Shown piece by piece: positions 3,530-55,492 of a stretch of 59,792 nucleotides of DNA. The notes below the pieces were generated by a model. That model searched no databases, was not told the origin of the DNA, and was given only the letters and a program-made list of their open reading frames with translations. The stretch lies in contig JANRLW010000030.1 of assembly GCA_033762295.1 (NCBI GenBank), positions 1 to 59,792 of the forward strand, read 5' to 3'. The position numbers were made by a program, and so were the translations under genes. How positions within the stretch are numbered: the first letter of the stretch is position 1; each line of letters begins with the position of its first letter. The DNA is from Capsulimonadales bacterium (GTDB taxonomy: Bacteria; Armatimonadota; Armatimonadia; Armatimonadales; Armatimonadaceae).

Positions 3530-3940
3530 TTTTATTTTCACCTTTCGGGCCGATAGGGGCCGCGCCCTGACTACGGAGTGTCATTCGCCACTCCGAACGG
3601 TTTGGTATCTTTTAATCATATGCACCCCGGGGTTTTGTTAAGAGAATGTTAAATTTTCTATTTATGTAGAATTTTATATGTATATAAAAATTTACTTAAT
3701 TTATAAAAATTGGTCATTTGAGCCTGTTAATAGTAGAAATATTTCATGTATCACCAGGGCCTCAGCCTATGGTTCATTTCCACCCTGCGTCGATCTCCGA
3801 CAGGTCTGCCACACGAAAAATCGTTCGATGGACGAAAGAAACCCGGCACGAAAACGGAGGGCATGGCGTTGTAAGGCGGTGAGACAGTTAGAAAGGTGGC
3901 GGAGCCCAACCTTCCGCTCCGCCGTTCAGGAACGAACCTC

Positions 3941-6496: not shown

Positions 6497-6621
6497 GGCG
6501 GTAAGGATTCCTTTACGTCGAGCGTTGACATCCTTACGTTGGAAACGTTGTCATCGGCTTCCTGCTTTCGCCGACGGAAGGGGACGGCGCAGGGGAAAAT
6601 AGGCGGAGGATGGGCGAAGGG

Positions 6622-6694
<73 letters not shown>

Positions 6695-28056: not shown

Positions 28057-29520
28057 TCAGGCGATAATCGGGGCGATGACTTCGCCGTGGACGTCGGTCA
28101 GGCGGCGCTGGCTGCCGTTGTGGTAGTAGGTGAGGCGGGTATGGTCGAGTCCCAGCAGGCGCAGCACGGTCGCGTGGAAGTCGTAGATCGTGCAGACATC
28201 CTTCTCGGCACGGTAACCGAACTCGTCGGTCGCCCCGTAGGAAAAACCGCCCTTCACGCCCGCGCCGGCCATCCAGGCGGTGAAACCGTACGGGTTGTGG
28301 TCGCGTCCCTCGCTGCCCACCTGACTCGTCGGCATCCGTCCGAACTCGGTGGTCCATATGACCAGCGTATCGTCCAGCAGGCCGCGCCGTTTCAGGTCTT
28401 TCAGCAGGGCGGCGGTCGGCTGATCGAGGATCGGACAGTGGCGTTCGTAGTCGGCTTTCAGGGTTTTGTGAGCGTCCCAGTTGAGAAGTCCATCCACTCC
28501 GGAGGCGCACGCGCCACAGTAAAGCTGGACGAAACGGACGCCGCGTTCGATCAGACGGCGGGCGAGAATGCAGTTCTTCGCATAGCTCGCCTTGAGCGGG
28601 TTGGCGCTATCCGCGCCGTAAAAGGCAAGCGTCCCCGCGGTTTCACGCGATAGATCGGTCACCTCCGGCGCACTGAGCTGCATCCGGGCCGCCAGTTGAT
28701 AGGACGCGATCCGCGCCGCCAGTTCGCTGTGACCGGGGTTCCGGCGGACATAATCGTCGTTGAGCCGCTGCAGGAAATCGCGAACCCGCTTTTCCTCGCG
28801 CGGGGTCGTTCCCTTCGGAGAGTCGAGATTGGCGATCGCGCGGTCGGTATTGAACGATGTTCCCTGAAAGGCGGCGGGCAGGAAGCCGGCGCTCCAGTTC
28901 GCCGGGCCGTTCGGCGGGAGTCCGCGTCCGTCGGGAATGGCGACGAATGCCGGGAGATCCCGGTTCTCCGTTCCGAGGGCGAAGGTCAGCCAGGCGCCGA
29001 TGCTCGGAAAACCCTCCAGGACGAATCCGGTGTTCATCTGCAGCATCGCCGGGCCGTGCGTATTGCTGCGTGCGGTCAGGGAGTGGACGAACGCGATGTC
29101 GTCCACGCATTCCGCCAGGTGCGGCACCAGTTCGCTGAGATACTTCCCGGATTGTCCGTACGGCTTCCATCCCCACGGGCTGCGTAGCAGGTTGCCGTTT
29201 CCGCCCTGGAAACTGCTGACACCGGTCAGGCCGGGCATCGGCTGTCCATGACGTTTTTCCAGTTCCGGCTTGTACTCCCAGAGGTCGATCTGGCTCGCCG
29301 CGCCGGGGCAGAATATCTGGATAACCCGCTTGGCCCTGACCGGGAAATGCGGCGAACGAGGAACGAGCGGGTTGCCGGCGTCGGCGCGGGCCGGACCGTC
29401 CTCACCGAGCAGACAGGCCAGGGCGATCCCGCCGAGTCCGGTTCTCATCTCGCTGAGAAACGCGCGTCGACCGATCCGACCCTGACGGCTCGTCGGGAGG
29501 TTTTCCGGTGTTGTCTTCAT
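28057..29520 (-). CDS. DUF1501 domain protein with Tat-like leader
   Basis: RRAFL leader; AKRVIQIF, ARRLIERGVRFVQL, WDAH, TTEFGRMP, GRDHNP. Confidence 0.92.
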   Translation of the reverse strand: MKTTPENLPTSRQGRIGRRAFLSEMRTGLGGIALACLLGEDGPARADAGNPLVPRSPHFPVRAKRVIQIFCPGAASQIDLWEYKPELEKRHGQPMPGLTGVSSFQGGNGNLLRSPWGWKPYGQSGKYLSELVPHLAECVDDIAFVHSLTARSNTHGPAMLQMNTGFVLEGFPSIGAWLTFALGTENRDLPAFVAIPDGRGLPPNGPANWSAGFLPAAFQGTSFNTDRAIANLDSPKGTTPREEKRVRDFLQRLNDDYVRRNPGHSELAARIASYQLAARMQLSAPEVTDLSRETAGTLAFYGADSANPLKASYAKNCILARRLIERGVRFVQLYCGACASGVDGLLNWDAHKTLKADYERHCPILDQPTAALLKDLKRRGLLDDTLVIWTTEFGRMPTSQVGSEGRDHNPYGFTAWMAGAGVKGGFSYGATDEFGYRAEKDVCTIYDFHATVLRLLGLDHTRLTYYHNGSQRRLTDVHGEVIAPIIA

Positions 29521-29577
29521 GGCGGGTCGGGCCTTCCTGTCTCCTGATGTCGGATTATTTCCCGGGCGTCAACTATT

Positions 29578-32403
29578 TCAGTAATAAAGGAACTCGTTGG
29601 CGTTGAGCAGGGCGCGGCAGAGGCCGGGCAGGTTCCCGGCGCGGATCAGCGCGATCGCGCCGTCCCGTTCGCCGGGCATCGGGTCTCGACCGAACGTCCG
29701 GCGGAACGCCTTTTGCGCCTGGACGACCGGAGACGCGCCCGCCTCGCGCCGGACACGCTCGGCGAGGAAGCCGGCTTGCTGCGTGACGAACGTTCCGTTC
29801 AGCAGGGCGAGCGACTGGAGCGCGGTCGTCGTGCTCTCGCGGCGAGGCGCACGCTGGCTCGATTCGGGGCAGTCGAACGCGCCGAGCAACGGGTCGCGGA
29901 TCGCCCGTGCGTTCTGCTGGTAGACACTCCGTCGCCAGGTCTCCGGGCCATACTCCTCCAGTGGCTCGTAAATCGCCACATTGACGACCCGGTAACGAAA
30001 CAGAGGGTAGCCGGGACCGCCTTGCCGCCGATCCAGTTTCCCGCTCGCCAGCAGGATCGCGTCCCGAACCGCTTCCGCTTCCATGCGCCGGAGCGGCATC
30101 CGCCAGAGCAGAACGTTTCCGGCGTCCTTCGCCATTGCTTGCGGAACCGCGTCGGAGGACTGACGATAGGTGTACGACAGGACCATACGCCGGTGCATCC
30201 GCTTGATCCGTCCGCCGTTTTTCAGGAAATCCGAGGCGAGATAATCGAGCAGTTCCGGGTGGGACGGTTTTTCGCCGTTGTTGCCGAAGTCGGAGGGGGT
30301 ATTGACCAGACCGCGCCCGAAGTGGTGTTGCCACAGGCGGTTGACGAGGACTCGCGCCGTCAGCGGGTTGCGCGGATCGGCGATCCAGCGCGCCAGCGCG
30401 AGTCGCCGTTCCGGTTCCGGCGCGTTCGGGTCGGCCAGGAGATCGGACGGCATCTGCCGTACCTGAGAAAGCCCGCCCGGAGTGACCTCATCGCCCCGTT
30501 GCATCACGTCGCCGCGTCGCAGGAGATGGATCGGGTCCGGTTCGGTGAAGTGGCCCGTGTAGGCGTTCCGGACCGGGTTCAGCGTGTCGGCGCGGCGGCG
30601 GAGATCGGTTCGGGCCGTCTCGATCGCTTCGATTCGCTGTCGTTCGGAAGGGGTCATTGCGGCGAGGATATCGGCATAGGCGGTCGTCGCCAGCGGGGCG
30701 CGGCCCTTTTCGGTGGACACCGTCGTCCAGCGCACGCCATCCTCGCTCACTTCGATCCGGTAAGCGGTCGCCAGTCGGTCGTCGAAACGGGGGTTGTCTC
30801 CCCCGTCACGGCTCCAGACGACGCGCCGGACGACCATGGTCGCCGGCAGTTCGATCCGGGCCCACCCTGCCCCACGTTCGTTGCTGATCCAGCTGCGATC
30901 GTTGCCCGCGACGCCGTCGTTCAGGTGCGGAATCTGATGGATGGGGTAGCCCGGCAAGAGCGAGGAGGCGGTCGCTTTCGCGCCGACGGACGCCAGAGCG
31001 AGATTGCGGTCCGCGTCGTCCCCGTAAATTCGGAGTTCGTCCAGATTCGGTTCCGCTCCGTCGTTGGTGGCGAGGACGACGAACCGGACGAACCGTGCGG
31101 GGACGGGGTCGAACTCGTCGACGTTGCGGCGGGCGTTCACCGCCGGTCGTGTGACGCCCGCCGTTCTGCGCCGGGCTTCCAGGCGTTCGCGCGCCGTCGC
31201 CTCGATCTCGGCCTTTTCATTGTTCCGTCGCGCGATTTCGTCCGTCAGCCGGTCGAGTTCCGCCCGTTCGGGGTCGGTCAGGCGGCGGGTGGTCAGCGGT
31301 CGTTCGGCGTGTCGCACACCGGCGAAGACGGCGGTCAGCCGGTAGTAGTCGTTTTGCGGGATCGGATCGAACTTGTGATCGTGACAGCGGGCGCAGCCGA
31401 TGGTCAGCCCGAGGAACGCCGCTCCGGTCGTCGAGACCATGTCATCCAGGTCGTTGGAGCGCTGCTGGCGCGTGCCCTCCTCCGTTTGAATGCCGACGGT
31501 GTCATGGATTCCGGCGACCAGGAATCCGGTCGCCGGCTCAAGCTGCGGATCGCCCTTGCCGACCACATCGCCCGCCAGTTGCTCGGCAATGAACCGGGCA
31601 TACGGTCGGTCCTCGTTGAAGGCGCGAATGACGTAATCGCGGTACGGCCAGGCGTTCGGCCGGACATGATTCTGTTCGTAACCGTGGCTTTCGCCGAATC
31701 GGACGATATCCAGCCAGTGTCGCCCCCAGCGTTCGCCGTAGGCGGGCGAGGCCAGCAGACGATCGACCACCTTCTCGTAGGCGTCCGGCGAAGGATCGTT
31801 GACGAACGCGGCGATTTCGTCGGGTGTCGGCGGCAGGCCGGTCAGATCGACGGTGACACGGCGCAGGAGGGCGTGCCGTCGGGCGGGCGGCGATGGACGC
31901 AGGCCGTTGCGCGCCAGTCGGTCGAAGACGAATCGGTCGATCGGGTCCCTGGCGAGCCGGTCGAACGGGGTACGGGGGACCGCCGGAGTCGCGATCGGGC
32001 GAAACGACCAGAGCGGCTTGATGACCAAACGAAGCGGTGTCAGCGGCTCCCGTGCATAGGCCGCGCCGTTCGCGATCCACCGTCGCAAAGTCTCCTGATC
32101 GGAGACGGGGAGTTTGGAATCCGGCGGCATCTGTCCGCCGGTGACTACCCGGACCACGCGGCTGCTCTCCGGATCGCCGGGGGAGAGGACGGAAAGCGCG
32201 TCCGAACGGCGTTCGAAGTTCACCTTGCCGGAGGCGGTTTTCCCGTTGTGGCAGGGAAGACATTTGGTCGCCAGAAGATCGGTCGCCTGCCGGTCGTCCG
32301 CCGGGCGGGAGGAACGCGTTCCTGCGGGAGCGAACGCCGCGAGCGTCGGCAGCGTCGCCGTGAATCCCAGCACCAGACAGATCGTACGCAGAGAGGAGGT
32401 CAT
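29578..32403 (-). CDS. Planctomycete cytochrome c / DUF1549 / DUF1553 (PSD1) protein with inserted F5/8-type C-like domain
   Basis: CLPCH, YGERWGRHWLD, CARCHDHKFDPI, NPLTARVLVNRLWQHHFGRG, PSHPELLDYLA, NANEFLY. Confidence 0.92.
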   Translation of the reverse strand: MTSSLRTICLVLGFTATLPTLAAFAPAGTRSSRPADDRQATDLLATKCLPCHNGKTASGKVNFERRSDALSVLSPGDPESSRVVRVVTGGQMPPDSKLPVSDQETLRRWIANGAAYAREPLTPLRLVIKPLWSFRPIATPAVPRTPFDRLARDPIDRFVFDRLARNGLRPSPPARRHALLRRVTVDLTGLPPTPDEIAAFVNDPSPDAYEKVVDRLLASPAYGERWGRHWLDIVRFGESHGYEQNHVRPNAWPYRDYVIRAFNEDRPYARFIAEQLAGDVVGKGDPQLEPATGFLVAGIHDTVGIQTEEGTRQQRSNDLDDMVSTTGAAFLGLTIGCARCHDHKFDPIPQNDYYRLTAVFAGVRHAERPLTTRRLTDPERAELDRLTDEIARRNNEKAEIEATARERLEARRRTAGVTRPAVNARRNVDEFDPVPARFVRFVVLATNDGAEPNLDELRIYGDDADRNLALASVGAKATASSLLPGYPIHQIPHLNDGVAGNDRSWISNERGAGWARIELPATMVVRRVVWSRDGGDNPRFDDRLATAYRIEVSEDGVRWTTVSTEKGRAPLATTAYADILAAMTPSERQRIEAIETARTDLRRRADTLNPVRNAYTGHFTEPDPIHLLRRGDVMQRGDEVTPGGLSQVRQMPSDLLADPNAPEPERRLALARWIADPRNPLTARVLVNRLWQHHFGRGLVNTPSDFGNNGEKPSHPELLDYLASDFLKNGGRIKRMHRRMVLSYTYRQSSDAVPQAMAKDAGNVLLWRMPLRRMEAEAVRDAILLASGKLDRRQGGPGYPLFRYRVVNVAIYEPLEEYGPETWRRSVYQQNARAIRDPLLGAFDCPESSQRAPRRESTTTALQSLALLNGTFVTQQAGFLAERVRREAGASPVVQAQKAFRRTFGRDPMPGERDGAIALIRAGNLPGLCRALLNANEFLYY

Positions 32404-32570: not shown

Positions 32571-33413
32571 TTACGGATTGCCCGGCGTGGTCTGCGTGGA
32601 GCAGTTGGCGGTGTACCAGCTCTCCTCGTCGGGGCAGAGGGTGCGCATCGGGTTGATGGAGTACTTGCCCTGGGAGCCGCGGAGGGTCTTCCAGTTGATG
32701 TACTTGGCATGACCGTCGAGGTAGGTCGCGTTGGTGCCGTCGCTATGCCGCTGGCTGGCCTGAGCGTAGATCTGCAGCCAGGTCGTATCGCCCGGTTCGA
32801 AGTACGGCGCGTTGTCCTCATCGAAGTCGTTGGTATCGTCATCTTCCGCGCCGGAGCGGACATCGGCCATGAAGAGGGCGTCCGCCGGGCGATCCCAGCT
32901 GGACAGGCGCATGTTCGGGTTGCTCAGACCGCCCACACCGGTCCATCCGAAGTTCTGCACCATTTCGTCGTTGCGTCCGTAGTGGCCGAAGAGGCAGGGC
33001 TTGTTGGCGCAGCCGCCGCCCGCCGTCGTCGCCGTCTCCGGAACGTTGGTCCAGAACGTGCCGGTCACGGCAGCCGCGTCGGTGGTGCCGTCATCGGTCC
33101 ATTTGAACGGGGCGGTAAAGTTGCGCTGGAACGGCCTCGGGGCGGAGGAACCGGGGCAGACGAAGATATCGATGCTCTTGACGTAGGGCAGGAGGTCGAT
33201 ATGGAACTCCCACCACTTGCGCCCGATGGTTTCGTCGTAGTCCTGAGCGTACATCAGGGTGGCGGTACCGAGCTGGCGCATATTGGAGAGGCAGGAAATC
33301 TGGCGGGCTTTGGCGCGCGCCTGGGCGAAGACCGGGAAAAGAATCGCTGCCAGAATGGCGATAATGGCGATAACCACGAGAAGTTCGATCAGAGTAAAGG
33401 CGGAACGGCGCAT
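32571..33413 (-). CDS. Prepilin-type N-terminal cleavage/methylation, DUF1559 and H-X9-DG domain protein
   Basis: [46 protein letters not shown]. Confidence 0.92.
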
Positions 33414-46416: not shown

Positions 46417-47607
46417 GTGGCGGACGGCCTGCGCGGGCTGGCGATTCTGCTGGTCGTCCTGCTTCATACCTGGGAAATTACCTGGGTGAACTACACGCGT
46501 CTGTTGCATCTGCCGTTCCCCGTGAACTTTATCCCCGCCACCGGATTCCTGGGCGTCGACCTGTTTTTCTTTCTCAGCGGGTTCTGTCTGACCCTGCCGT
46601 ACGCACGCCACCGTTTCGAATCCGCTCCCGAACCGACGGTCCGTCATTTCCTGATGCGCCGCGCCGCCAAGATCCTGCCGTCCTACTGGCTGACGGTCGC
46701 GGTGACCTTTTTCCTGCTGCCGCATCCCAATGTCACGGCGGACCGCCTGCCGTTCCATCTGCTGACCCACCTGCTCTTCGTGCACAACTGGTTTTTTGAG
46801 ACCGGGATCAACAGCATTCACGGGGTTTTCTGGTCGCTGGCGGTCGAGGTGCAGTTTTACGCGTTGTTTCCGCTCCTGATCGGTTTTTTCCGCCGTTCGC
46901 CGTGGCTGACCGTGGCGGGGATGACGGCTGTGGCTCAATGCTGGCGGGCGTTCGTGCTCTTTCTGTTTCGGATGGATCAGGATGTGGTGATGATGGATTT
47001 CCGTGACCTGAATCCGGCCGGTTATCTGGATCTGTTCGCGGCGGGGATGGCGGCTGCCTGGGTTTTCATGCAATGGCGGCATCGAGAGGGTGTGCGGCGT
47101 TCGGCCCTGTTGTTTACCGTGATCGCCCTGGTCGGGTTCCTCGCGTTGCTCGGCCTGATGCGCGCCTGCTATGCCACGGCTCCGAGCGGCGATCCGCTGC
47201 GGGTCTGGCATCTGCAGTTTCGTCTGGCACTGTCCGTGACGTTTGCCGTGGTGATGATCGGGTCCGTTTTTGCCGTTCGTCCGTTCCGGGCGATTGTCGC
47301 AAACCGTGGGATGACCGCTCTCGCCTTCATCTCCTACAACCTCTACCTCTGGCATCAATGCGTCGCCCGCTGGCTGAACGAACTCAACCTTCCGCCCTCA
47401 CGCATGGCGGACCGGCATGAGGATACGGTGTGGCAGGTGACCTTTCTTCTCACGGCCTGGTCGGTAAGTCTCCTGCTCGCCACTCTGCTGACCCGCTACT
47501 GGGAGCGCCCGTTCCTGCGCGGGGAACGGCTCCGGTTCCGGCCTCCGGGACGGCAAACGGCTATTCCGGGGCCGAATCGCCCAGGCCTCGCAGAATCTCC
47601 CGAATAG
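46417..47607 (+). CDS. Acyltransferase family 3 (OafA/YrhL-like O-acetyltransferase)
   Basis: DGLRGLA, GVDLFFFLSGF, RRAAKILP, WSLAVEVQFY, ISYNLYLWH, WERPF; true start may be ATC at 46378/46381. Confidence 0.92.
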   Translation: MADGLRGLAILLVVLLHTWEITWVNYTRLLHLPFPVNFIPATGFLGVDLFFFLSGFCLTLPYARHRFESAPEPTVRHFLMRRAAKILPSYWLTVAVTFFLLPHPNVTADRLPFHLLTHLLFVHNWFFETGINSIHGVFWSLAVEVQFYALFPLLIGFFRRSPWLTVAGMTAVAQCWRAFVLFLFRMDQDVVMMDFRDLNPAGYLDLFAAGMAAAWVFMQWRHREGVRRSALLFTVIALVGFLALLGLMRACYATAPSGDPLRVWHLQFRLALSVTFAVVMIGSVFAVRPFRAIVANRGMTALAFISYNLYLWHQCVARWLNELNLPPSRMADRHEDTVWQVTFLLTAWSVSLLLATLLTRYWERPFLRGERLRFRPPGRQTAIPGPNRPGLAESPE

Positions 47608-47812
47608 CCGCACTCGGTCCCTGTCCGGTCCGTTCGCAGTAGTCCATCAGCCGGTCGCAACTCTCGTTGTCGAGGCGAACGGAGATGCGAAACGGACAGA
47701 GGGCCGAGTTTCGCTTGCGTCCGGAGCGATCTCGTGGCCCACCCCACCGGGCGCTGCTCTCCCTGACGACATTTTCGGTGTTTTTGATTTCGGGTGTCAT
47801 CTCGGATGCCAT
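47561..47812 (-). CDS. Ribbon-helix-helix DNA-binding protein with AT-hook-like motif
   Basis: WGGPRDRSGRK, then RISVRL (beta strand), NESCDRLMDYCERTG (helix), PSAAIREIL (helix); divergent from the head cluster. Confidence 0.7.
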   Translation of the reverse strand: MASEMTPEIKNTENVVRESSARWGGPRDRSGRKRNSALCPFRISVRLDNESCDRLMDYCERTGQGPSAAIREILRGLGDSAPE

Positions 47813-47824
47813 TTCCTCCCGGAA

Positions 47825-47866
47825 TGGATTTATCATGGAAAACAGATGTTTGCTATGAAAAATTCA
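47825..47866. promoter_or_regulatory. AT-rich imperfect palindrome in the divergent control region; LexA-box-like core
   Basis: TGGATTTATCATGGAAAACAG|ATGTTTGCTATGAAAAATTCA; core AAAC-AGAT-GTTT. Confidence 0.55.
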
Positions 47867-47884
47867 CGGAAAGGAAGCAGGGAG

Positions 47885-48157
47885 ATGACCACAGCGGAAG
47901 TGATCGGCCTTCTCAAGGAGATGGCGGTCGTGGTGACCGCCGTTTCCGGGTTGATCGCCTCTCTGGCCGCTCTGCGCACGGGCAAACGGGCATATGATGC
48001 CGCCGCCCGCGCACAGGAGGCGGCGACCGAGGCGCAGACCCGGGCGACGGAGGCGGTACGCGAACAGATTCATTTCGCCCTCAAGCGGGCGGCGGTACGG
48101 GAAAGGAGCAAGCATGAACCGGATACGACTGGCAAACACAACGACGGCGACGTTTAA
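47885..48157 (+). CDS. Small single-TM coiled-coil protein, holin-like
   Basis: MAVVVTAVSGLIASLAAL hydrophobic helix followed by a charged helical tail; first gene of the module. Confidence 0.5.
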   Translation: MTTAEVIGLLKEMAVVVTAVSGLIASLAALRTGKRAYDAAARAQEAATEAQTRATEAVREQIHFALKRAAVRERSKHEPDTTGKHNDGDV

Positions 48158-48884
48158 CGCCGACTATCCGTCGATCGGGGGGCGAGTGCACGTTCCCTGT
48201 CAACTGTTTCAGGCCGGGGAATACCCCGATAAGGGCGTCACCGTGACCGAGGAGGAACTGGACCACCTGATTCTCCGGTTTCGGCGCGGCGATCGCGCGG
48301 TCCCGATCCGCGTCGAGCATATCGAGACGCCGCTGGACCCTCTCGGTCATGTGGTCGCCCTGCATCGGGAGGGCGGATTTCTGTATGGGACGCTGGCCTT
48401 CCCGGTGGGGCTTTACTTTCATATCCGCGAGCGGAAGGCCGATCGGGTCTCGGTCGGGCTGCAGGCGGTCGAGGACGAATACGGACGCGGCTATCTGTTA
48501 TTCGAATGTTCGCTCGTCTTTACACCACGGGTCGCGGGGGCCGGGTTTCTGAGTCCGGAGCAGGTCGCGGCCCGATTGGCGATCTACCGGCAGCAGGGCA
48601 AGGTCACCCCGGCGATGGAGGAACCGCTGGCCGGGCTTCTCGCCCTGTGCGCTCCCCCGGAGGGGTCGGAGGCGTCGGAGGTGACGTTCGGCGCGGGGGG
48701 CGGCGCGGAACTGACCGCGATGCTCGATGCGTTGATGGACGCATTGCCGGTCGTCCTGCCCCGCGGCCCGGCCGTTCCGGTCCGGTTCCATCGGGAGGCG
48801 AACGAACCGGCGCTTTCCCCGGAGATGGAGCGATGGGCGCGTTCGATGGGACTCGATCCCGCCCGTGTGGCACGGATGAAGTGA
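48114..48884 (+). CDS. Mu gpI-like prohead protease with short scaffold
   Basis: LFQAGEY, PIRVEH, LGHV, RVSVG, ECSLVFTPRV; scaffold motifs GKVTPAM and LSPEM..A..MGLD; GAAAGGAG RBS. Confidence 0.8.
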   Translation: MNRIRLANTTTATFNADYPSIGGRVHVPCQLFQAGEYPDKGVTVTEEELDHLILRFRRGDRAVPIRVEHIETPLDPLGHVVALHREGGFLYGTLAFPVGLYFHIRERKADRVSVGLQAVEDEYGRGYLLFECSLVFTPRVAGAGFLSPEQVAARLAIYRQQGKVTPAMEEPLAGLLALCAPPEGSEASEVTFGAGGGAELTAMLDALMDALPVVLPRGPAVPVRFHREANEPALSPEMERWARSMGLDPARVARMK

Positions 48885-48947
48885 ACGCGGAGGAAGTGAG
48901 CGGCGATGGAGACGCGGAGCGAAGAGGAGATCGAGAAAGGGGAAAAC

Positions 48948-49358
48948 ATGGCGGCATTGACAGGGGCCTATGAGGCCAAACGAACGGTCGGGCAACAGAA
49001 AGCCTACCGGATGGCGGCGTCGACGACGATTCACAAGGGGGCGCTGGTCGCGGTCAACAGTCAGGGGTGGGCGGTACCGGCCTCCGATACCGCCGGGTTG
49101 ATCGTGGTCGGCGTCGCCGCCGAGTCGAGAACGAACGGAACGCCGGCCGGAGCGACGGCCATTCTCGTCGATAAGTCCGGGGAGTACGAGTATGCTTTCG
49201 CCGGAACCGCGTCCCAGACGATCGTCGGAAAACTCGCTCTGGTGACCGACGACAACACCGTGAATCTGGCGACGACGAACAGCATTGCGGCCGGGTACGT
49301 GACCGAGGTTCCGGCGACGAACCGTGTCCGAATCCGTATCGACAACGTGACGAAGTGA
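48948..49358 (+). CDS. Capsid cement/decoration protein (DUF2190-like)
   Basis: AASTTIHKGALVAVNSQGWAVPA..VVGVAAES..VGK...DDNTV..AGYV; located between protease and major capsid genes. Confidence 0.8.
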   Translation: MAALTGAYEAKRTVGQQKAYRMAASTTIHKGALVAVNSQGWAVPASDTAGLIVVGVAAESRTNGTPAGATAILVDKSGEYEYAFAGTASQTIVGKLALVTDDNTVNLATTNSIAAGYVTEVPATNRVRIRIDNVTK

Positions 49359-49370
49359 AAGGAGATTTCG

Positions 49371-50258
49371 ATGGCAGCGGTGACCAGTGATGTGATGCGG
49401 TCTTTGACCGCCATGTGCAAAGCCATTTATGGCGACGGCTATAACGCGCGCGCCGGCGTCTGGCAGGACCTGGCGACCGTGATCCCGAGCACGCAGGGGA
49501 CCGAGACCTATGCATGGCTCGGGGAGATACCGGTCATGCGCCCCTGGCTCGATGAGCGGCAGCTTCTGGGACTCCGGGAGTACGGGTTCACAATCACCAA
49601 TCTGAAGTGGGAGGCGACCCTGGCGATCTCGCGGGTGGCAATCGAGGACGATCAGACCGGACAGATCAAAATCCGCGTTCTGGCGCTGGCCGATGCCGCC
49701 AACCAGCATTATGACAAAATGCTCTTCGATCTGATCAACGGCAATCCGACGGCCTACGATGGGGTCGCCATGTACGCCGCCGCCCACGCGAATCTGGAGA
49801 CGGGCGCGGGCTCCGCGCTGTCCGCGACGAAACTACAGGCGGTCATCGCCGCGATGAAGTCCCGTCTTCTGCCGAACGGCGAACCGATGGACATCACGCC
49901 GACCCATCTTCTGGTGCCGCCCGCACTGGAGTGGACCGCCAAGCAGATCCTGAACTCCGCCTACTGGCCCGACGCGGCGGGGGCCGGTGCAAACGCCACC
50001 AATGTGCTACAAGGCGCGTTAAAACTGGTTGTTTCCGCGCGACTGGCGACGGCGACCGAATGGCATGTTTTCGATTGCTCCCGCCCGGTGAAGCCCTGGA
50101 TCATTCAGCAACGGATCGCCCCGGAGTTTCAGGCGCTGGAGGATGTGACGGCGAATGAGTCCGTCTTCCTGCGGGACGAGTTTTTATTCGGCGTTCGTTC
50201 CCGCGACAACGCCGGTCCCGGTATGTGGCAATACGCCTATCGGTGCACGGGCGCATAG
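49371..50258 (+). CDS. Mu-like major head subunit gpT (major capsid protein)
   Basis: PST..ETYAWLGEIP.MRPW, N.KWEATL.I.R.AIEDDQTG, P.HLLVPPALE, KPWIIQQR, EFLFGVRSR.NAG.G.WQ.AY. Confidence 0.93.
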   Translation: MAAVTSDVMRSLTAMCKAIYGDGYNARAGVWQDLATVIPSTQGTETYAWLGEIPVMRPWLDERQLLGLREYGFTITNLKWEATLAISRVAIEDDQTGQIKIRVLALADAANQHYDKMLFDLINGNPTAYDGVAMYAAAHANLETGAGSALSATKLQAVIAAMKSRLLPNGEPMDITPTHLLVPPALEWTAKQILNSAYWPDAAGAGANATNVLQGALKLVVSARLATATEWHVFDCSRPVKPWIIQQRIAPEFQALEDVTANESVFLRDEFLFGVRSRDNAGPGMWQYAYRCTGA

Positions 50259-50283
50259 CGGTCGGAGAAAGGAGAAAAGGACG

Positions 50284-50721
50284 ATGTCGATATTGACGAT
50301 CACTCCGGCGGAGATTCTTCGGCTCTGCCGGCTCGACCCGGCGGATACGATCCACCTGGCGGACGCGAACGAGGTGCTGGACCGCGGACAGGAGGCGTAC
50401 GAAGCGATGGTGCAGCCCGTTCTGCTGAACGATCCGGGACTCGCCGTGTTCCTGCGGCGGAACGTCGCCAAACTGCTGGCGGCCGATCTGCTCGGAATGC
50501 GTTCCCGCGAGGAAGGGGTTTCGGTCGGTCTGCAGGGGGCGGGCATCACCCTGGGGCCGCCTCCCGACCTGGCGGGACGTCTGCGGGACGAGGCGATGCT
50601 TTTGCTCGAACCGTATCTGCGTTCCTGGCGTCCCGGAGGCGCTATCACCACGCCTGAGGCCAGTGAGGCGGCCCAGGACGCGCAGTCCGCTCTGTTCGGT
50701 CCGGCGGTTCGGACCCGGTGA
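50284..50721 (+). CDS. Putative head-tail connector (gp6/gp36-like helical protein)
   Basis: 145 aa helical protein directly after the capsid gene; ITPAEIL..A..LLEPYL pattern; GAAAGGAG RBS. Confidence 0.55.
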   Translation: MSILTITPAEILRLCRLDPADTIHLADANEVLDRGQEAYEAMVQPVLLNDPGLAVFLRRNVAKLLAADLLGMRSREEGVSVGLQGAGITLGPPPDLAGRLRDEAMLLLEPYLRSWRPGGAITTPEASEAAQDAQSALFGPAVRTR

Positions 50722-50748
50722 ACGTTCGGAGAGAAAGGAGACCCGGCC

Positions 50749-52347
50749 ATGACGATCGAGGATCGGCTCGTTCTGGCCAAACGCCTCTGGGACTGGTCGC
50801 CGCACGAAGGGCAGCACGCCTTTCTGACGCTCCGACTGGACGACGGCAGCGAGCCGAAAACGCTGGTCGCCGCCTGCGGACGACGCTGGGGGAAGACCGA
50901 GGCGCTCAGCGTCGATATCGCCACCCGTCTGCTGACGATCCCGGAGGAAGCGCACCTCGTCGTCGGGCCGACCGCCGATCAGGCGGTCGGCCTGTTCGAT
51001 GCGATCGAGGAGAAGCTACGCGAGGTGCGGGAGAACGAAGCCCTGATTCAGGAGTTCCCGCACCTGCGCGACTTCGAGTTTCGCCGCTCCCCGTACTGCC
51101 ATATCCGGCGTTCGTCGGACGGGCAGACGGTGCTCTCCGCCCGTTCGGCGGCCAAACGAGGACGAAACCTTCGTGGCAAGGGGACGACCCGGAAGCTGAA
51201 ACGCTTCCGGGTAACGGTCGATGAGGCGGCGTTCGTCGAGGACGCCGCCATTACCGAAGCGCTGCAGCCGATGCTGGCCACCGTTCCGGGCGGTGGCCAG
51301 CTTGTCCTGATCTCGTCTCCGTACGGACGGCGCGGAGTGTTCTACGAGGCGTACCTGCGCGGCGAACGGCGGGAGGGGCGGTATCGAAGCGTCCGACTGC
51401 CCTCGTCGCAAAATCCGCTGGTGGACCCGGTCTTCCTGGCGGAGAAGGAGGCGGAACTCGCTCCGCGTCAGTTCGCGGCCGAGTACCGCGCCGAGTTCGT
51501 GGATTCGGCGGGCGCGGTCTTTCCCACCGAGGATATCGAGCAGTGCCTGACGGAGGACGACTACGGCCCGGAACCGTTGTTCGGGATGGTCTACGTGGCC
51601 GGGATCGATCTGGCGCGTCGTGGCGATTTCACCGTCGTCGCAATCGGAGCGGCGGAGCGGGACCGTCTTCGTCTCGTGACGCTGCACCGGCTGACCGGGC
51701 TGAACTGGCGACGGCAGATCGATCAGGTGTGTGACCTGCTGGCGCGGTGGAACGTTCGCCGGGTCTGCCCGGACCGTACGGGCATCGGCGATATGCCGGT
51801 GGAGACGCTGCAGGCGGAGATCGTCGCCCGCCGCCTGCGTTGCGAACTCGCCGATTTCTATTTTACCGAGAGCGGCAAGCGGCGGCTGATCGACGGGCTG
51901 GCGATCGGCCTGAGTCGACGACAGCTGGCGATCCCGAGGAATCCGGTACTGCTCTCGGAACTTGCCAACTTCGAGGTGACGGGAACCACCGGAGCGGGAC
52001 GCGAGCGGATGGAGGCGCGTGTCGGGCACGATGACACGGTTATCGCGCTGGCGCTGATGCTGGAAGCGGCCGCTCCGTTCCGGCGGCGAACCCCGGTTCC
52101 GTTCGGCGCGGTCGCCGGGCGGCGGCGGATCGGACCGTTCGACCCGAGGACGGGTCCCGACGCCGCCCACTTTTCAACGGGAAAGGAACAGGAAGTACCA
52201 TGCGAATCCCCCGATTCGATCTGCGCGGCCTCTTTGCCGCCCCTCGCTCTGACCGTCCGGGAACGCGTTTTGCGGGACGCAGTGACGGCGCTATCCCGCT
52301 TCGCGGTCGGACGGGCGGCGCTCGCCCGGTGGGGACGGAAGCGGTAA
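50749..52347 (+). CDS. Terminase large subunit
   Basis: PHEGQ; Walker A CGRRWGKT; Walker B VTVDEAAF; ISSPYG; EYRAEF; nuclease residues in GIDLA, DRTGIG, HDDTVIALAL. Confidence 0.95.
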   Translation: MTIEDRLVLAKRLWDWSPHEGQHAFLTLRLDDGSEPKTLVAACGRRWGKTEALSVDIATRLLTIPEEAHLVVGPTADQAVGLFDAIEEKLREVRENEALIQEFPHLRDFEFRRSPYCHIRRSSDGQTVLSARSAAKRGRNLRGKGTTRKLKRFRVTVDEAAFVEDAAITEALQPMLATVPGGGQLVLISSPYGRRGVFYEAYLRGERREGRYRSVRLPSSQNPLVDPVFLAEKEAELAPRQFAAEYRAEFVDSAGAVFPTEDIEQCLTEDDYGPEPLFGMVYVAGIDLARRGDFTVVAIGAAERDRLRLVTLHRLTGLNWRRQIDQVCDLLARWNVRRVCPDRTGIGDMPVETLQAEIVARRLRCELADFYFTESGKRRLIDGLAIGLSRRQLAIPRNPVLLSELANFEVTGTTGAGRERMEARVGHDDTVIALALMLEAAAPFRRRTPVPFGAVAGRRRIGPFDPRTGPDAAHFSTGKEQEVPCESPDSICAASLPPLALTVRERVLRDAVTALSRFAVGRAALARWGRKR

Positions 52348-53459
52348 CCCGGGCGTTCTCGGCGGAATACGGACCGGCGGACGGTTACCCGCCGGGCGGT
52401 CCGGAGACCTTCGAACGGATGCGACGCGATCCGCAGGTCCGCGCCTGCCTCACCACCAAAACCCTCTCCGTCCTGTCCGAGGACGTCGAGGTGCATCCGG
52501 CGGACGAGAGTGACGCGGCCAGGCGGGCGGCTCGTCGAACGGAGGAGCAGCTGGCGCGTCTGCCGGGCGGAATCCCCGGACTGTGCGCCGGGGCGCTGGA
52601 GGCGCTGGCCCTGGGCTGCGCGATCGGCGAACTGATCCGGACGGACGACGGCGAACTGGGGGAGGTCCGCTGGCATGATCCCCGCCGGTTCCGCTTTCTG
52701 ACCGACGATTTCGGCGCGATCCGTGAACTCGAGGTGATCGACGCCGATCTGCGTCTTCCCCGGTCACGGTTCGTCCTGTACTCGTATCAGAGCCGGTTCG
52801 GCAACCCGTACGGGGAAAGCGACCTGATCGCCGCCTATCGTCCCTGGGCGGCGAAGGATCTGGTTCAGCGAATGTGGCTGTCGGCCCTCGATCGGTTCGG
52901 CGCGCCCATACCCGTGGCAAAGGTGCCGACCAGCTGGAGCCAGGCGGAAACGGACGCGTTGACCGCATTGCTGGCTCGTCTGCAGAACGAATCAGCCCTC
53001 GTGGTGACCGCGGACGTCGATATCGGCGTGACACTGGACGCCGGGCGGGTCGAACCGGCGCGGGCGTTTCATGTCGCGGCGGAGTGGCTCGACACCCAGA
53101 TCGCGCGGGCGATTCTCGGTCAGGAACTCACCACGCAGAGCGGAAAGGCCGGCAGCTACGCTCTGGGGAAGGTCCATCAGGAGATTCTGAGCGTTCGGAT
53201 TCGAACGATCCGGCGGGAACTGGCGGCAATGCTGACCGACCAGATCGCCCGTCCGATCACCGAAACGGGGTTCGGGTCCGGCGTACCGGTCCCTGTCCTG
53301 CGATTTCCCAACCTGACGACCGACGAACTGGCGGCGCGTCAGGCATTGATGCTGGCGATGATCGACGGAAACGTCGTCGCCCCCGACGAGGCATGGATCC
53401 GTCGGTATCTCGGGCTGCCGGCAAGATCGACGGAAGGAGGGGGGAATGACACCCGGTGA
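52200..53459 (+). CDS. Portal protein (DUF935, Mu gp29-like)
   Basis: MRRDPQVRACL, NPYGESDL, W...DRFGAP, IARAILGQELT, GSYALGKVH. Confidence 0.92.
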   Translation: MRIPRFDLRGLFAAPRSDRPGTRFAGRSDGAIPLRGRTGGARPVGTEAVTRAFSAEYGPADGYPPGGPETFERMRRDPQVRACLTTKTLSVLSEDVEVHPADESDAARRAARRTEEQLARLPGGIPGLCAGALEALALGCAIGELIRTDDGELGEVRWHDPRRFRFLTDDFGAIRELEVIDADLRLPRSRFVLYSYQSRFGNPYGESDLIAAYRPWAAKDLVQRMWLSALDRFGAPIPVAKVPTSWSQAETDALTALLARLQNESALVVTADVDIGVTLDAGRVEPARAFHVAAEWLDTQIARAILGQELTTQSGKAGSYALGKVHQEILSVRIRTIRRELAAMLTDQIARPITETGFGSGVPVPVLRFPNLTTDELAARQALMLAMIDGNVVAPDEAWIRRYLGLPARSTEGGGNDTR

Positions 53460-53805
53460 GCGACTGCGGATCGCGGCGGAACGACTGGTGCGCGTTTCCG
53501 GCGGTCTGTTCGTCTACCGGCGGGGAGGCGCGACGCTGACCGTTCCCGCCCGACTCGGCATCCTGACGACGACCCAGCGTTATCAATGGTTCACGGCGTC
53601 CGAAACATCGAACTGGGCCGCGCCGGCGTATGTCCTGATGGTGGCCGGGGACTTTCTTCCGTTCGGCGGCGAGCCGACGACCGCCGATTCGGTCCTGCTC
53701 GCCAACTTCGAGGGAGCCGGAACGCCCTACGAAGTCAAACGCTGGGATAAACCCCGAATCGGCGGTGTGGCGGTCAAAACCGTTCTGTTTCTGGAAAAGC
53801 GGTGA
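53446..53805 (+). CDS. Putative head-closure/joining protein
   Basis: 119 aa beta-rich protein, last gene of the module; P..ADSV..G..YEV pattern; GGAGG RBS. Confidence 0.5.
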   Translation: MTPGERLRIAAERLVRVSGGLFVYRRGGATLTVPARLGILTTTQRYQWFTASETSNWAAPAYVLMVAGDFLPFGGEPTTADSVLLANFEGAGTPYEVKRWDKPRIGGVAVKTVLFLEKR

Positions 53806-53817
53806 ACCCCCGGAGGG

Positions 53818-54003
53818 TCACCGGGCGAGACGGTTCGCGGCCGGAGGCGGAGACATTCGCGGTGTCGCCGCGAACTGTTTCTCCGTCTCCTGTCCGTAAC
53901 GGAAAAGATAGTAACCGGCGGTCAGGCACCAGAGAAGGACCGCCCAGAGACAGACGGTTCCCACGACATTGCTCTTGCTTTTTCGCGACAGGCCATATTC
54001 CAT
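53818..54003 (-). CDS. Small single-TM hypothetical protein
   Basis: MEYGLSRKSKSNVVGTVCLWAVLLWCLTAGYYLF.. fills the gap between the module and ppaC. Confidence 0.5.
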   Translation of the reverse strand: MEYGLSRKSKSNVVGTVCLWAVLLWCLTAGYYLFRYGQETEKQFAATPRMSPPPAANRLAR

Positions 54004-54130: not shown

Positions 54131-55492
54131 TCAGAGGGTGCTTTCGATCGCGTTCTGTAGCGCCGGTGCCAGCTGCTTTTTGCGCGAAACGATCTCCTCC
54201 AGATCGAAATCGTAATCGGCGACGTGCGCGAACGGGAGGGCATCGACGATGTTGCGCTTACCCTGAACCAGCATCCGGCTGGTTCCGGTGACGACATCGG
54301 TAATCATCAACCCGATGAAGGCCAGTCCCTCGCGGTCAAGACGATCGCTCAACGCCTGAAGAAGTCCCTCGCGTTGCTGTGGCAGTTCCTGCATGCCGGT
54401 GACTTCGACCTGCGCCAGGCTGACTTTGAGTCCGCCCATATCGTACTCTTTACGGTCGCCGTCGAGGATCTCGTCCATGGTGCGGGTGGAGAGACCGGGC
54501 GAGGAGTTCAGCAGCTCCTTTCCGTACAGAAGGACATCGACCAGGCAGACGCCGCTGAGCCAGTCGGCGGCGTCGAAATCCCGTTCGTGCGTCGTGGGCG
54601 AGCGGAAGACGAGCGTATCGGACAGGATGCCCGACAGGAGCAAGCCGGCGATCGGACGCGGCGGGGTCAGGCGGCGGGCGCGGCACTGTTCGGCCACCAG
54701 CGTCGACGTGCTGCCGACCGGGTCGACCATGAACGGGATCGGGGATGCGGTCGGCGGGTTCCCGAGCCGATGGTGGTCCAGAACGCCGACGATTTCCGCC
54801 TCCTCCGCGCCGGCGACCGCCTGCGACAGTTCGTTGTGGTCGACCAGGATCAGACGCGCCTTCGGCGGCTGCAGGACACGTCGCTGAACGGCGATTCCTT
54901 CGTAAAGGTTTCGGTCATCGACGACGATGAACTCGTTGCTTTCAGCCCGCTCGATCGCCTTGCGGTGATCGGAAAGGCGGGCGCGGCTCTTGAACAGCAT
55001 CGGCGGCTCCGCCAGTTCGCCGCACGTCGGCATCGACGTCCCGTCGAAACGTTTCCCGCTGTTGAACGTTCGGGCATAGATCCGCGCGAGCGCCAGCGGG
55101 GTGACGATACCGAGGAGAAGCCCGTCCCGTTCGGCGACCGGAATGATCTGTTCGCCATGCTCGACCCGTTCCAGCGCGACGGACAGCGGCGCGTCGGGCG
55201 GCACCGCCGGTCGCCGTTCGATGACATGATGGAAGGTCGCGGCGACATCGGTCAACAGGCGGGGAGGCGACTGTTCGAAACGCTCCAGAGCGTACCGCGC
55301 CTGTTCGGACGGAACGCCGGCACGGGTCGCGACCATCCCATGGTGACCGGTCTGCTGCAGAAGCCACGCGTACCCCAGGGCGGCGGCGATGGAATCGGTG
55401 TCCGGGCGTCGGTGTCCGATGACATAGGTAACGTCCGCGACCCAGTAGTCGTCCCGTTCTATGGAATACGGCATAGCCACTAGTTTCGTCAA
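54131..55492 (-). CDS. ppaC: Mn-dependent inorganic pyrophosphatase (family II) with CBS domains
   Basis: GHRRPDTDSI, LVDHNELSQ, LDHH, PVGSTST, ILSDTL.FRSPTT, VSRKKQ. Confidence 0.93.
   Translation of the reverse strand: MTKLVAMPYSIERDDYWVADVTYVIGHRRPDTDSIAAALGYAWLLQQTGHHGMVATRAGVPSEQARYALERFEQSPPRLLTDVAATFHHVIERRPAVPPDAPLSVALERVEHGEQIIPVAERDGLLLGIVTPLALARIYARTFNSGKRFDGTSMPTCGELAEPPMLFKSRARLSDHRKAIERAESNEFIVVDDRNLYEGIAVQRRVLQPPKARLILVDHNELSQAVAGAEEAEIVGVLDHHRLGNPPTASPIPFMVDPVGSTSTLVAEQCRARRLTPPRPIAGLLLSGILSDTLVFRSPTTHERDFDAADWLSGVCLVDVLLYGKELLNSSPGLSTRTMDEILDGDRKEYDMGGLKVSLAQVEVTGMQELPQQREGLLQALSDRLDREGLAFIGLMITDVVTGTSRMLVQGKRNIVDALPFAHVADYDFDLEEIVSRKKQLAPALQNAIESTL

Follow-up and report, generated by a model that had tools for sequence, protein, structure and literature searches.

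How a set of phage head and DNA-packaging genes with no tail genes beside it came to lie among ordinary host genes of an Armatimonadota bacterium, and what its product might do, is the question raised by this locus. The window analysed here is the whole of contig JANRLW010000030.1 (59,792 b), and its genome is referred to as G000. Eight plus-strand ORFs without internal stops (A to H; Table 1) occupy positions 47846–53805 in the order protease–cement–capsid–adaptor–TerL–portal–stopper, with the gene of a small membrane protein (gene A) upstream of the protease gene. They are flanked by an Acyl_transf_3 gene on one side and a DHH-CBS-DHHA2 (ppaC-like) gene on the other, and among 39 other ORFs of the window that were scanned, 36 match host-type Pfam families, three match nothing, and none is phage-like. 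The initial annotation had described eight contiguous intact head ORFs among host genes, with acyltransferase and ppaC neighbours and a divergent ribbon-helix-helix (RHH) regulator. The ORF list and the Pfam and PHROG matches bear this out for the ORFs and their flanks, but the match of the divergent ORF to PF01402 RHH_1 (E 1.8e-3, 18.6 bits) falls under the 20.5-bit cut-off. A homologue of this ORF (47% identity over 53 aa) occupies the same divergent position in the metagenome locus L034.

Table 1. Positions of the head-module genes and adjoining features in the window
Feature	Position	Strand	Remarks
Divergent small regulator candidate (ribbon-helix-helix-like)	47561..47836	-	91 aa; 3' end overlaps the acyltransferase gene
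Gene A, small protein with one hydrophobic helix	47846..48157	+	Start probably at residue 14 (47885)
Gene B, prohead protease/scaffold, Mu gpI-like	48114..48884	+	ORF open from 47994; likely start 48114
Gene C, capsid cement/decoration protein	48906..49358	+	phrog_1731 3.8e-18 (cement / virion structural protein)
Gene D, major capsid protein, gpT family	49371..50258	+	PF10124 1.1e-60; phrog_371 2.1e-67
Gene E, head-tail adaptor, HK97 gp6 / SPP1 gp15 class	50284..50721	+	Fold-based; ORF open from 50155
Gene F, large terminase (ATPase + RNaseH-like nuclease)	50749..52347	+	Terminase_6N/6C, phrog_2
Gene G, portal, Mu/DUF935 type	52200..53459	+	ORF 5' end overlaps TerL; true start uncertain
Gene H, stopper / head-closure, lambda gpFII / SPP1 gp16 class, tail-docking face of the neck	53446..53805	+	Fold-based
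Terminator-like hairpin at operon end	53856..53874	+	8-pair stem, then T-rich tail; 50 bases past the stop codon of H; consensus match only

Host genes fill the ~6 kb between the end of the module and the end of the contig, and the module is therefore not cut by an assembly edge. In composition the module is host-like, with a GC3 of 0.73–0.80 compared with 0.755 ± 0.038 for the host, and codon use likewise within the host range, as found in the GC and codon check proposed earlier. The sole tRNA of the window (Met, 6620–6694) is not near the module, and no att-like direct repeat flanking the module was found, in agreement with the first description. The module is single-copy in G000, and Portal_Mu has only one match in the genome.

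The portal (gene G) matches PF06074 (Portal_Mu; 4.8e-63) over profile positions 3–336 of 336, as well as phrog_113 (8.4e-62), and the capsid gene D is preceded by the Shine-Dalgarno-like word GAAAGGAGA at 49351–49365. Gene B has a weak match to phrog_976, a head maturation protease (2.9e-4), which its homologues match at 3.8e-10 and 8.2e-13, and Glu68-His69 (97%) and Ser113 (100%) are conserved over 35 aligned homologues. Homologues of gene C match PF09956 Phage_cement_2 (2e-5) and PF22758 Phage_cement (9e-5). Gene A had been called holin-like, which was not confirmed: the protein has one hydrophobic helix, no Pfam family and a weak match to phrog_27 (3e-3), while its matches in the Atlas are to small viral hypothetical clusters (score 0.85) and serve as leads only. 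Homologues of gene A are found upstream of the protease gene in six related loci, and this small membrane protein could be a holin.

The large terminase (TerL) scores 2.6e-5 with Terminase_6N, 9.5e-8 with Terminase_6C and 6.2e-33 with phrog_2, and matches the Thermus phage TerL nuclease (PDB code 5tge; 4.8e-13) and ATPase (PDB code 4zni; 3.6e-10). It retains, as first noted, the Walker A and Walker B motifs and the three nuclease Asp motifs in intact form, all of them conserved in 11/11 aligned TerLs. The genes previously termed connector and closure-like can be specified by fold comparison as adaptor (E) and stopper (H). For E, adaptor matches were obtained only from the VIA-align wide search, and Foldseek returned no match. 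The AlphaFold model of H (pLDDT 91.7) has phage necks as best Foldseek matches, and VIA-align pairs it with the T4 neck protein (10.2), the phiCD508 neck (10.1), lambda 8xow_f (10.0), the T1 stopper (9.7), the SPP1 connector (8.2) and an RcGTA virion chain (7.6). Profiles of E and H searched against PDB sequences gave nothing meaningful. Because adaptor and stopper folds are present, the predicted neck shows a head built for tail docking. Taken together, the predicted capsid, protease/scaffold, cement, portal, TerL, adaptor and stopper are shown to make up the kit with which a prohead can be built, loaded with DNA and closed, leaving a surface to which a tail can attach. An encapsulin-like compartment was also considered, and was rejected because of the portal, TerL and neck proteins.

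The module had been labelled Mu-like, which holds for the capsid, portal and protease, but not for TerL and the adaptor, both closest to Thermus siphophage types. With Mu-like phages it shares the gpT capsid, the DUF935 portal, the gpI-like protease and a cement gene that immediately precedes the capsid gene. It differs from them in several points: no MuA/MuB, Mu F, G, gp36 or gp37 was found in the window by Pfam/PHROG, the DUF1804 small terminase, sheath and baseplate are likewise missing, and the gene order departs from the TerS–TerL–portal–F–G–I–T of Mu-like phages. When the control contig L038, a true Mu-like phage, was passed through the same scan, DUF1804, Mu F, G, I, gp36, gp37, sheath and gp45 were detected. 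The Thermus siphophages P74-26, G20c and P23-45, for their part, differ from the module in being complete tailed phages with HK97-type heads, which belong to another capsid family.

In the window (15 + 39 ORFs), Pfam recognised no tail, lysis, integrase/recombinase, replication or TerS gene, and the clean head-only set described at first is thus upheld within these limits. A self-sufficient gene-transfer agent (GTA) could still be assembled if tail, lysis and small-terminase genes lay elsewhere, as in the multilocus RcGTA, and were too diverged or unassembled for recognition. Against this, the whole-genome profile search of G000 gave no match to Phage_sheath_1, PhageMin_Tail (positive controls detected) or Baseplate_J, and the near-complete genomes G027 and G029 (three contigs each) have no Baseplate_J, HK97 capsid or SPP1-type portal; these tail searches covered only a few Pfam families, and G000 is 94.5% complete in 132 contigs. 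An HK97 capsid was matched in 0/5 genomes searched. In the terminase searches, each of five genomes has exactly one Terminase_6C match, the module's own, and none of five matches TerL_ATPase. Since no tail cluster was found elsewhere in G000 with the families tried, the initial suggestion that tails are encoded elsewhere is without support. Related loci also argue against self-sufficiency: in 9/14 of those tested an endolysin gene follows within ~1 kb of the stopper gene with no tail genes between, and the mobile cousins described below, both bounded integrated ones and a complete episomal one, are tail-less too. We consider a self-sufficient GTA improbable.

In the integrated cousins, head genes are accompanied by a large serine recombinase, HTH_17, TerL and restriction-modification cargo, but by no tail genes; the one at G040:C7 additionally carries PrimPol-DUF3987. 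A further cousin contig, with an exact 15,312-b period, has only head genes and small ORFs. Judged from its sequence, this 15.3-kb cousin is an episome without tails, and the sister copies are mobile tail-less elements that resemble capsid-forming PICIs (cf-PICIs). In the available text of the reports on them, cf-PICIs such as EcCIEDL933 encode capsid, protease, portal, TerL, head-tail adaptor and connector themselves but lack tail genes (PMC10085698; 10.1101/2025.02.11.637232), and build DNA-filled capsids without tails, which they acquire from phages (10.1101/2025.02.11.637232). The module, too, has its own TerL, portal, protease, capsid, adaptor and connector and no recognised tail genes, and the mobile cousins add a recombinase, an HTH_17/excisionase-like regulator and a primase to the likeness. 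The module differs from cf-PICIs in that no integrase, primase-replicase, AlpA-type regulator or TerS was recognised in it and that host genes adjoin it directly; a divergent RHH-like ORF (under the Pfam cut-off) is present instead of an AlpA/MerR-type regulator. Capsid and portal belong to the Mu gpT/DUF935 type, the cousins use a large serine recombinase, and the hosts are Armatimonadota, whereas cfPICI are reported from Proteobacteria and Firmicutes in the available portion of the SatelliteFinder survey. The cousins' PrimPol-DUF3987 protein has no tblastn match in G000, and serine recombinase homologues in this genome are located on contigs C105 and C126, not at the module locus. The initial annotation had proposed a GTA-like or tail-borrowing capsid system. 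Since mobile tail-less cousins exist, an immobilised capsid-forming satellite is a better frame than a GTA, and on balance we favour, with a little more confidence than doubt, a chromosomally fixed head-and-neck module descended from tail-less capsid-forming mobile elements (cf-PICI-like satellites) circulating in Armatimonadota.

Homologous head-only sets, scored by the major capsid protein (MCP), are present in 36/71 genomes of the order. Related loci found number 146, of which 80 were kept. The distribution of MCP is near all-or-none by genus (g14 22/24, g2 4/4, g4 2/2, g6 0/10, g7 0/6), and within the positive clade the capsid gene is missing in two genomes, G007 (87% complete) and G013 (90% complete). 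In genus g14, seven of the eight core-type loci, in seven species, have common host flanks, with PAS-GGDEF-EAL, UPF0547 and GSDH on one side and GH10 on the other. The large neighbour of the g14 module had been tried as a tailspike, which was rejected, as it is the PAS-GGDEF-EAL host protein. Values of dN/dS in g14 are 0.17 for MCP, 0.23 for the portal, 0.27 for the protease, 0.22 for the cement protein, 0.42 for the adaptor and 0.35 for the stopper, compared with 0.21–0.33 for the flanking host genes, where dS is similar to that of the module genes. TerL of g14 stands by itself between host genes, as much as 570 kb from the module, with intact motifs and a dN/dS of 0.27–0.32. For G012 and G021, a close species pair (g2) from the window's own family, dN/dS is 0.12 (MCP), 0.21 (TerL), 0.22 (portal) and 0.14 (stopper), with dS of 0.45–0.88, and antisense ORFs give 0.14–1.24. 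These comparisons show, at the level of sequence, homologous sets kept under purifying selection in relatives, with vertical inheritance at least within genera. The selective retention claimed at the outset is consequently supported for homologues, and by the fixed host locus in g14; for the copy in G000, the sole genome of its genus, dS to the nearest relatives is saturated (pS 0.63–0.76).

Selection could also be serving a selfish element and not a function of the host, if the 6-kb module still moved as a satellite that relied on a helper phage or other element for integration, replication and small-terminase functions in trans. Close cousins are clearly mobile or episomal, some genomes have 2–4 copies, and the flanks of the module vary between genera of the window's own family. 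The gene order around ppaC is itself unconserved (4/4 relatives), and differing flanks can therefore not separate mobility from rearrangement. A recombinase, att repeats and a tRNA target are missing from the window, and all 11 positive genomes of the family have a single copy. In g14, moreover, the core copy stays at one host locus with a dS equal to that of its flanks, and its MCP tree agrees with the RpoB tree, from which the G014 and G001 rows (wrong or cut ORF, very long branches) were disregarded and in which G018, G021 and G052 have no match. Core copies also cluster apart from mobile copies in the MCP tree (SH-aLRT 90). The tree congruence proposed earlier as a check is thus found for the g14 copies, while G000 contributes only as the sister of G010, in both trees. 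A still-mobile satellite is in our judgement unlikely.

The nearest relative, metagenome contig L034, has an MCP 67% identical to that of the window and the identical nine-gene order, but also a GH108 endolysin gene that directly follows the stopper gene, and upstream a 3-kb stretch of ORFs of unknown function. L034 may, from this gene content, be a mobile form, in which case the copy in G000 could be recently immobilised. The L034 lysin has no tblastn match in G000, and the Glyco_hydro_108 profile matched nothing in five genomes, where the positive control was equally silent. The missing endolysin would also suit a functionless satellite or prophage remnant that has not yet decayed, as would signs of erosion in relatives: the portals of G008 and G010 are truncated by ~40 C-terminal residues, the modules of both are split or reordered, and in-frame stops occur in 4/30 portal and 2/32 TerL matches among those listed. 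Such a remnant is nevertheless very improbable, considering that all eight ORFs of the window are intact with their catalytic motifs, that none of the 30 listed capsid matches contains a stop, that within-genus dN/dS is 0.12–0.42, and that two families keep the same set at 36–59% identity.

With respect to function, the fixed module probably encodes, as its gene content suggests, a host-retained particle that borrows tails from other phages. As neither a TerS nor a lysis gene was found, a helper would be needed to account for the start of packaging and for release, and we know of no helper phage for these hosts. We tentatively suggest, while regarding it as distinctly open to doubt, that Armatimonadales keep a domesticated satellite that would act as a helper-dependent GTA, i.e., a silent, vertically inherited head-and-neck module, with the terminase sometimes at a separate locus. 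On the reading favoured above, the putative divergent RHH-like repressor would keep the genes silent until a tailed phage infects, whereupon heads would assemble and be filled with DNA by TerL. This DNA would most likely be the host's, or else the phage's, because there is no self-specific TerS or replicating island. The heads could then be completed with tails stolen from the helper and exit through the invader's lysis, and the host might profit from gene transfer that depends on the helper, from interference with the helper, or from both.

Such a particle can be compared with RcGTA, which according to the available text (PMC5026251) likewise consists of phage-derived structural genes without replication or integration genes, is vertically inherited under purifying selection (seen for the module in relatives), and has parts dispersible over several loci. 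RcGTA differs in that it supplies its own tail and head spikes and has lysis genes dedicated to it; no such genes were found for the module with the families tried. Tail-less capsids could alternatively be the end product, as DNA-filled or empty heads that serve, e.g., as DNA packets for competence uptake, or as a protein shell with some other role. No tail genes were found with the families searched, and even when no helper is present, cf-PICIs release capsids that contain DNA but lack a tail, as stated in the available text of the report (10.1101/2025.02.11.637232). Purifying selection on a tail-docking adaptor and stopper (dN/dS 0.42 and 0.35 in g14, 0.14 for the stopper in g2), and the lack of a lysis gene for particle release, speak against this alternative, which we hold to be quite improbable.

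In the literature text available to us, capsid-forming tail-less satellites are reported only as mobile islands in Proteobacteria and Firmicutes, the known GTAs are complete particles with both head and tail, and no description was found of such a module as an Armatimonadota GTA, domesticated satellite or domesticated defective prophage. The present loci would extend the capsid-forming tail-less lifestyle to a distant phylum that has been little studied, in forms that carry a serine recombinase or PrimPol or exist as an episome, and suggest that head modules can become fixed in the chromosome, shed all mobility genes, split over loci and stay selected through the divergence of a genus. They also provide a concrete candidate route to a GTA-like function from a satellite rather than a prophage. 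Tailocins and other domesticated tail modules are a host-retained half of a phage virion under selection; the module mirrors them, in that it keeps the half for head and packaging and lacks the half for the tail. A helper-dependent GTA would, if real, cut phage yield and spread host genes to kin, and would constitute the head-side counterpart of tailocins and an undescribed intermediate between cf-PICIs and GTAs. The eight-gene set is small and lends itself to expression. As a separate observation, a G000 homologue of an f2 neighbour gene (cluster 21) is located on contig C75, among host genes.

Genes A to H of the window (a small hydrophobic-helix protein, protease/scaffold, cement, gpT capsid, adaptor, large terminase TerL, portal and stopper) are eight successive ORFs free of internal stops, and the window is one entire contig, C30 of 59,792 b, of the assembly G000 (5.16 Mb, 132 contigs, 94.5% complete). 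Four of them, the capsid, TerL, portal and cement genes, are firmly identified by Pfam and PHROGs. The match of the upstream protease/scaffold (256–296 aa) is itself weak; its homologues score better (3.8e-10 and 8.2e-13), and in an alignment of 35 homologues the Glu-His positions are 97% and the Ser 100% conserved. The Walker A, Walker B and three nuclease Asp motifs of the TerL align with the solved TerL of a Thermus phage and are conserved in 11/11 homologues. For two small ORFs without a family, structures were predicted from alignments of 16 homologues each. The predicted structure of gene H (pLDDT 91.7) matches the folds of neck stoppers and head-closure proteins, with scores of 10.2 for the T4 neck, 10.0 for lambda 8xow_f and 9.7 for the T1 stopper, followed by the SPP1 connector (8.2) and the RcGTA virion (7.6). 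Gene A encodes about 90 aa with a single hydrophobic helix, and the label holin-like that the initial annotation gave it was not confirmed and stays a guess. A divergent 91-aa ORF is RHH-like with a score under the Pfam cut-off, and its position is kept in one related contig. A terminator-like hairpin is found 3' of gene H. Codon use and GC3 of the module are host-like, at a GC content of 65.5% vs 62.3% for the genome.

Locations of the module, of other features in the same genome and of related loci
Feature	Location	Strand	Match or remark
Module, eight ORFs (A to H)	window 47846-53805	+	
Protease/scaffold, gpI-like		+	phrog_976, 2.9e-4
Cement-type virion protein		+	phrog_1731, 3.8e-18
Major capsid protein, gpT family		+	PF10124, 1.1e-60
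Large terminase (TerL)		+	Terminase_6N/6C; phrog_2, 6.2e-33
Portal, Mu/DUF935		+	PF06074, 4.8e-63
ppaC-like gene	window 54131-55492	-	DHH-DHHA2 protein with inserted CBS domain
Prepilin-type N-methylation motif + DUF1559 genes; DUF1501 / DUF1549-DUF1553 pairs	window 2603-3541, 28057-32403, 32571-33413		
Small ORF (L102)	G000:C75:3512-4135		between SpoIIE-like and fumarylacetoacetase-like genes
GH108 endolysin	L034 10724-11305		directly 3' of stopper
Truncated portal, G008	L029 11555-12727	-	no shifted remainder detectable
Truncated portal, G010	L030 10212-11510		no shifted remainder detectable
Mobile element, G040 (L025+L026)	G040:C7:60000-84454		
Mobile element, G030 (L024+L016)	G030:C1:3.93-3.955 Mb		
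Repeating contig, G069 (L053)	G069:C3:1-20000		

To the left of the module lies an Acyl_transf_3 gene; to its right come a DHH-CBS-DHHA2 gene in convergent orientation and then a PAS-SpoIIE phosphatase. The DHH-CBS-DHHA2 gene, which is ppaC-like, is 58–67% identical in five relatives, but conservation does not extend to its neighbours in the four that were checked. None of the 39 further ORFs of the window is phage-like; 36 match ordinary host families and three match nothing. The sole tRNA of the window lies 41 kb from the module, around which no flanking direct repeats stand out. Across the G000 genome each module protein is single-copy, and searches for Phage_sheath_1, PhageMin_Tail and Baseplate_J (controls gave signal), for an HK97 capsid, for an SPP1-type portal and for a terminase besides that of the module all came out empty. 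That the other Mu genes are absent from the window is not due to insensitive tools, since in a positive control the same scan detected lysozyme, DUF1804, TerL, portal, F, G, I, T, gp36, gp37, sheath, gp41 and gp45 in L038, a metagenome contig (20.8 kb) that carries an ordinary Mu-like myophage with a capsid 34% identical to that of the window. The intact head-only operon among host genes recognised in the initial annotation is thus confirmed, except for the holin label.

Within the order the capsid gene was found in 36/71 genomes and in 22 of the 41 sampled relatives, which have TerL in 21 and the portal in 22. Presence is nearly all-or-none per genus: 22/24 genomes in g14, a genus of the sister family, 4/4 in g2, 2/2 in g4, 0/10 in g6 and 0/6 in g7. 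On the RpoB tree, from which two rows with wrong ORFs were set aside, g6, g7 and g10, all negative, make up a separate clade (support 99). Outside it lie the positive genera of the family to which the window belongs, along with two negative genomes (87% and 90% complete). The metagenome contig L034, with a capsid 67% identical to that of the window, has exactly the same gene order, from the RHH gene on the minus strand through A, protease, cement, capsid, adaptor, TerL and portal to the stopper. Other genomes of the family retain E-TerL-portal-H or TerL-portal-H. In G008 host genes surround and separate the two halves of the module, which are 15 kb apart, and in G010 portal and TerL are swapped in order and sit on another contig than the capsid block. 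The portals of these same two genomes are without their last ~40 residues, which may indicate erosion. Among the matches listed, in-frame stops occur in 4/30 portals, 2/32 TerLs and 0/30 capsids; together with the truncated portals, they count against one uniform function.

Inheritance with the host is best resolved in g14, where the block has the order cement, protease, capsid, adaptor, stopper, one or two small genes, and portal. Its host flanks are identical in kind in 7/8 core-type loci, from different species: PAS-GGDEF-EAL, UPF0547 and GSDH at one end, GH10 at the other. The TerL is located outside the block, alone among host genes and, in near-complete genomes, at a distance of 100 to 570 kb, with intact motifs, dN/dS of 0.27–0.32 and neighbours shared in two species. 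Such solitary intact genes are found at L027 (G027), L028 (G029) and L033 (G030); the neighbours common to G027 and G030 are a small protein and a UvrD-type helicase, and a 177-aa ORF 3' of TerL in G027 weakly matches the phage repressor family phrog_4738 (1e-4). The tree of the core capsids repeats the RpoB branching, with G029 basal, followed in turn by G036, the pair G028 and G030, and a crown group. Across seven loci (Nei-Gojobori), dN/dS is 0.17 for the capsid, 0.23 for the portal, 0.27 for the protease, 0.22 for the cement, 0.42 for the adaptor and 0.35 for the stopper, and 0.21–0.33 for four flanking host genes; median dS is 0.8–1.2 for the module and 1.0–1.3 for the flanks. Under purifying selection the g14 module has changed at the pace of the host genes around it, as a domesticated gene set would, and the parts list is kept by selection even when scattered. 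In the closest pair of the window's family, G012 and G021, dN/dS is 0.12 for the capsid, 0.21 for TerL, 0.22 for the portal and 0.14 for the stopper (module dS 0.45–0.88); spurious antisense ORFs in this comparison gave mixed values, from 0.14 to 1.24. For G000, dS to its nearest relatives is saturated; its module genes are all intact, and G000 and G010 are sisters in both the capsid and RpoB trees. The small ORF L102 of G000 shares 41% identity over 78 aa with the small protein 3' of the portal in two g14 core loci.

Additional copies in genomes of g14 differ from the core copies and are mobile elements. The element in G040 (~24 kb) is integrated next to host genes and carries a large serine recombinase, HTH_17, TerL, restriction-modification cargo, head genes and a PrimPol-DUF3987 primase. 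That in G030 is integrated too and similar; its cargo is a Type ISP restriction enzyme and an SNF2/PLD helicase, and the primase, which closes the G040 copy, was not found in the examined part of the G030 copy. In G069 the sequence of a 24,958-b contig recurs exactly every 15,312 b, and the contig is therefore a circle or concatemer. It encodes TerL, cement, protease, capsid, an extended adaptor, stopper, portal, HTH_17 and ~12 small uncharacterised ORFs; no ORF of tape-measure length is present, and Pfam and PHROGs revealed no recombinase, primase or tail. A second G069 contig (L054, G069:C2) is 80–94% identical to it. None of the elements in G040, G030 and G069 has tail genes, and on the capsid tree the mobile copies are placed beside, not inside, the fixed core group (SH-aLRT 90).

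One study describes cf-PICIs (capsid-forming PICI satellites) as having capsid, TerL, portal, adaptor and connector genes of their own, with tails and holins excluded by the model used to search for them (PMC10085698); another describes their release of tail-less DNA-filled capsids that take phage tails (10.1101/2025.02.11.637232). Functionally, the G040, G030 and G069 elements match this description as cf-PICI-like satellites in Armatimonadota, a phylum for which the sources compared report none. The window module differs from cf-PICIs in having no integrase or primase, and from gene transfer agents (GTAs) in having no tails, and its likeness to Mu-like phages is limited to three head proteins. 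In place of an AlpA/MerR-type regulator it has the RHH-like ORF, gene A could be a holin, and no small terminase was recognised. Its parts are exactly those needed to build, mature and fill a prohead and to seal it by a neck that can dock a tail. It has no genes for tails, lysis or induction and perhaps none for a small terminase, and because these are exactly what a helper phage supplies to a cf-PICI, the window locus is most likely an immobilised descendant of a cf-PICI-like satellite. The host might benefit from host DNA moved in pirated particles, from spoiled helper yield, or from both. We file the locus on the continuum of capsid-forming satellites and GTAs; if a helper-dependent GTA is the true reading, it merits a category of its own. 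Our literature searches brought up no account of a head-only packaging module that is fixed, nor any of satellites or GTAs from Armatimonadota.

With one genome scanned for each species, 146 related loci were found, and the best 80 of these are, by record titles, nearly all from Armatimonadota MAGs (Armatimonadaceae, Armatimonadales, Capsulimonadaceae and Fimbriimonas). Capsid loci L145, L154, L156, L158, L175, L176 and L191 stand under titles of other groups (Janthinobacterium, Coatesbacteria, Peribacteria, Neomarinimicrobiota, Paludibacter, Phycisphaerae and Latescibacterota), for which a wider host range and binning error are both possible. Three gene orders recur when read by tblastn with the module proteins: cement-protease-capsid-adaptor-stopper-x-portal (15 loci), the canonical phage order (TerL-)portal-protease-cement-capsid-adaptor-stopper (about 13 loci), and protease-cement-capsid-adaptor, the type of the window. 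In 9/14 testable loci of the latter two orders an endolysin follows within ~1 kb 3' of the stopper, often with a ~107-aa ORF in between, and none of the nine has tail genes between the neck and lysis genes. No homologue of the L034 lysin was found in G000. The endolysins that follow the stopper (L122, L123, L134, L139, L166, L169, L174, L180, L187 and L034) are of at least four types, namely M23-like, phrog_2649/465, phrog_435, amidase and GH108, and these differences imply that the lysis gene is often swapped while the head genes stay.
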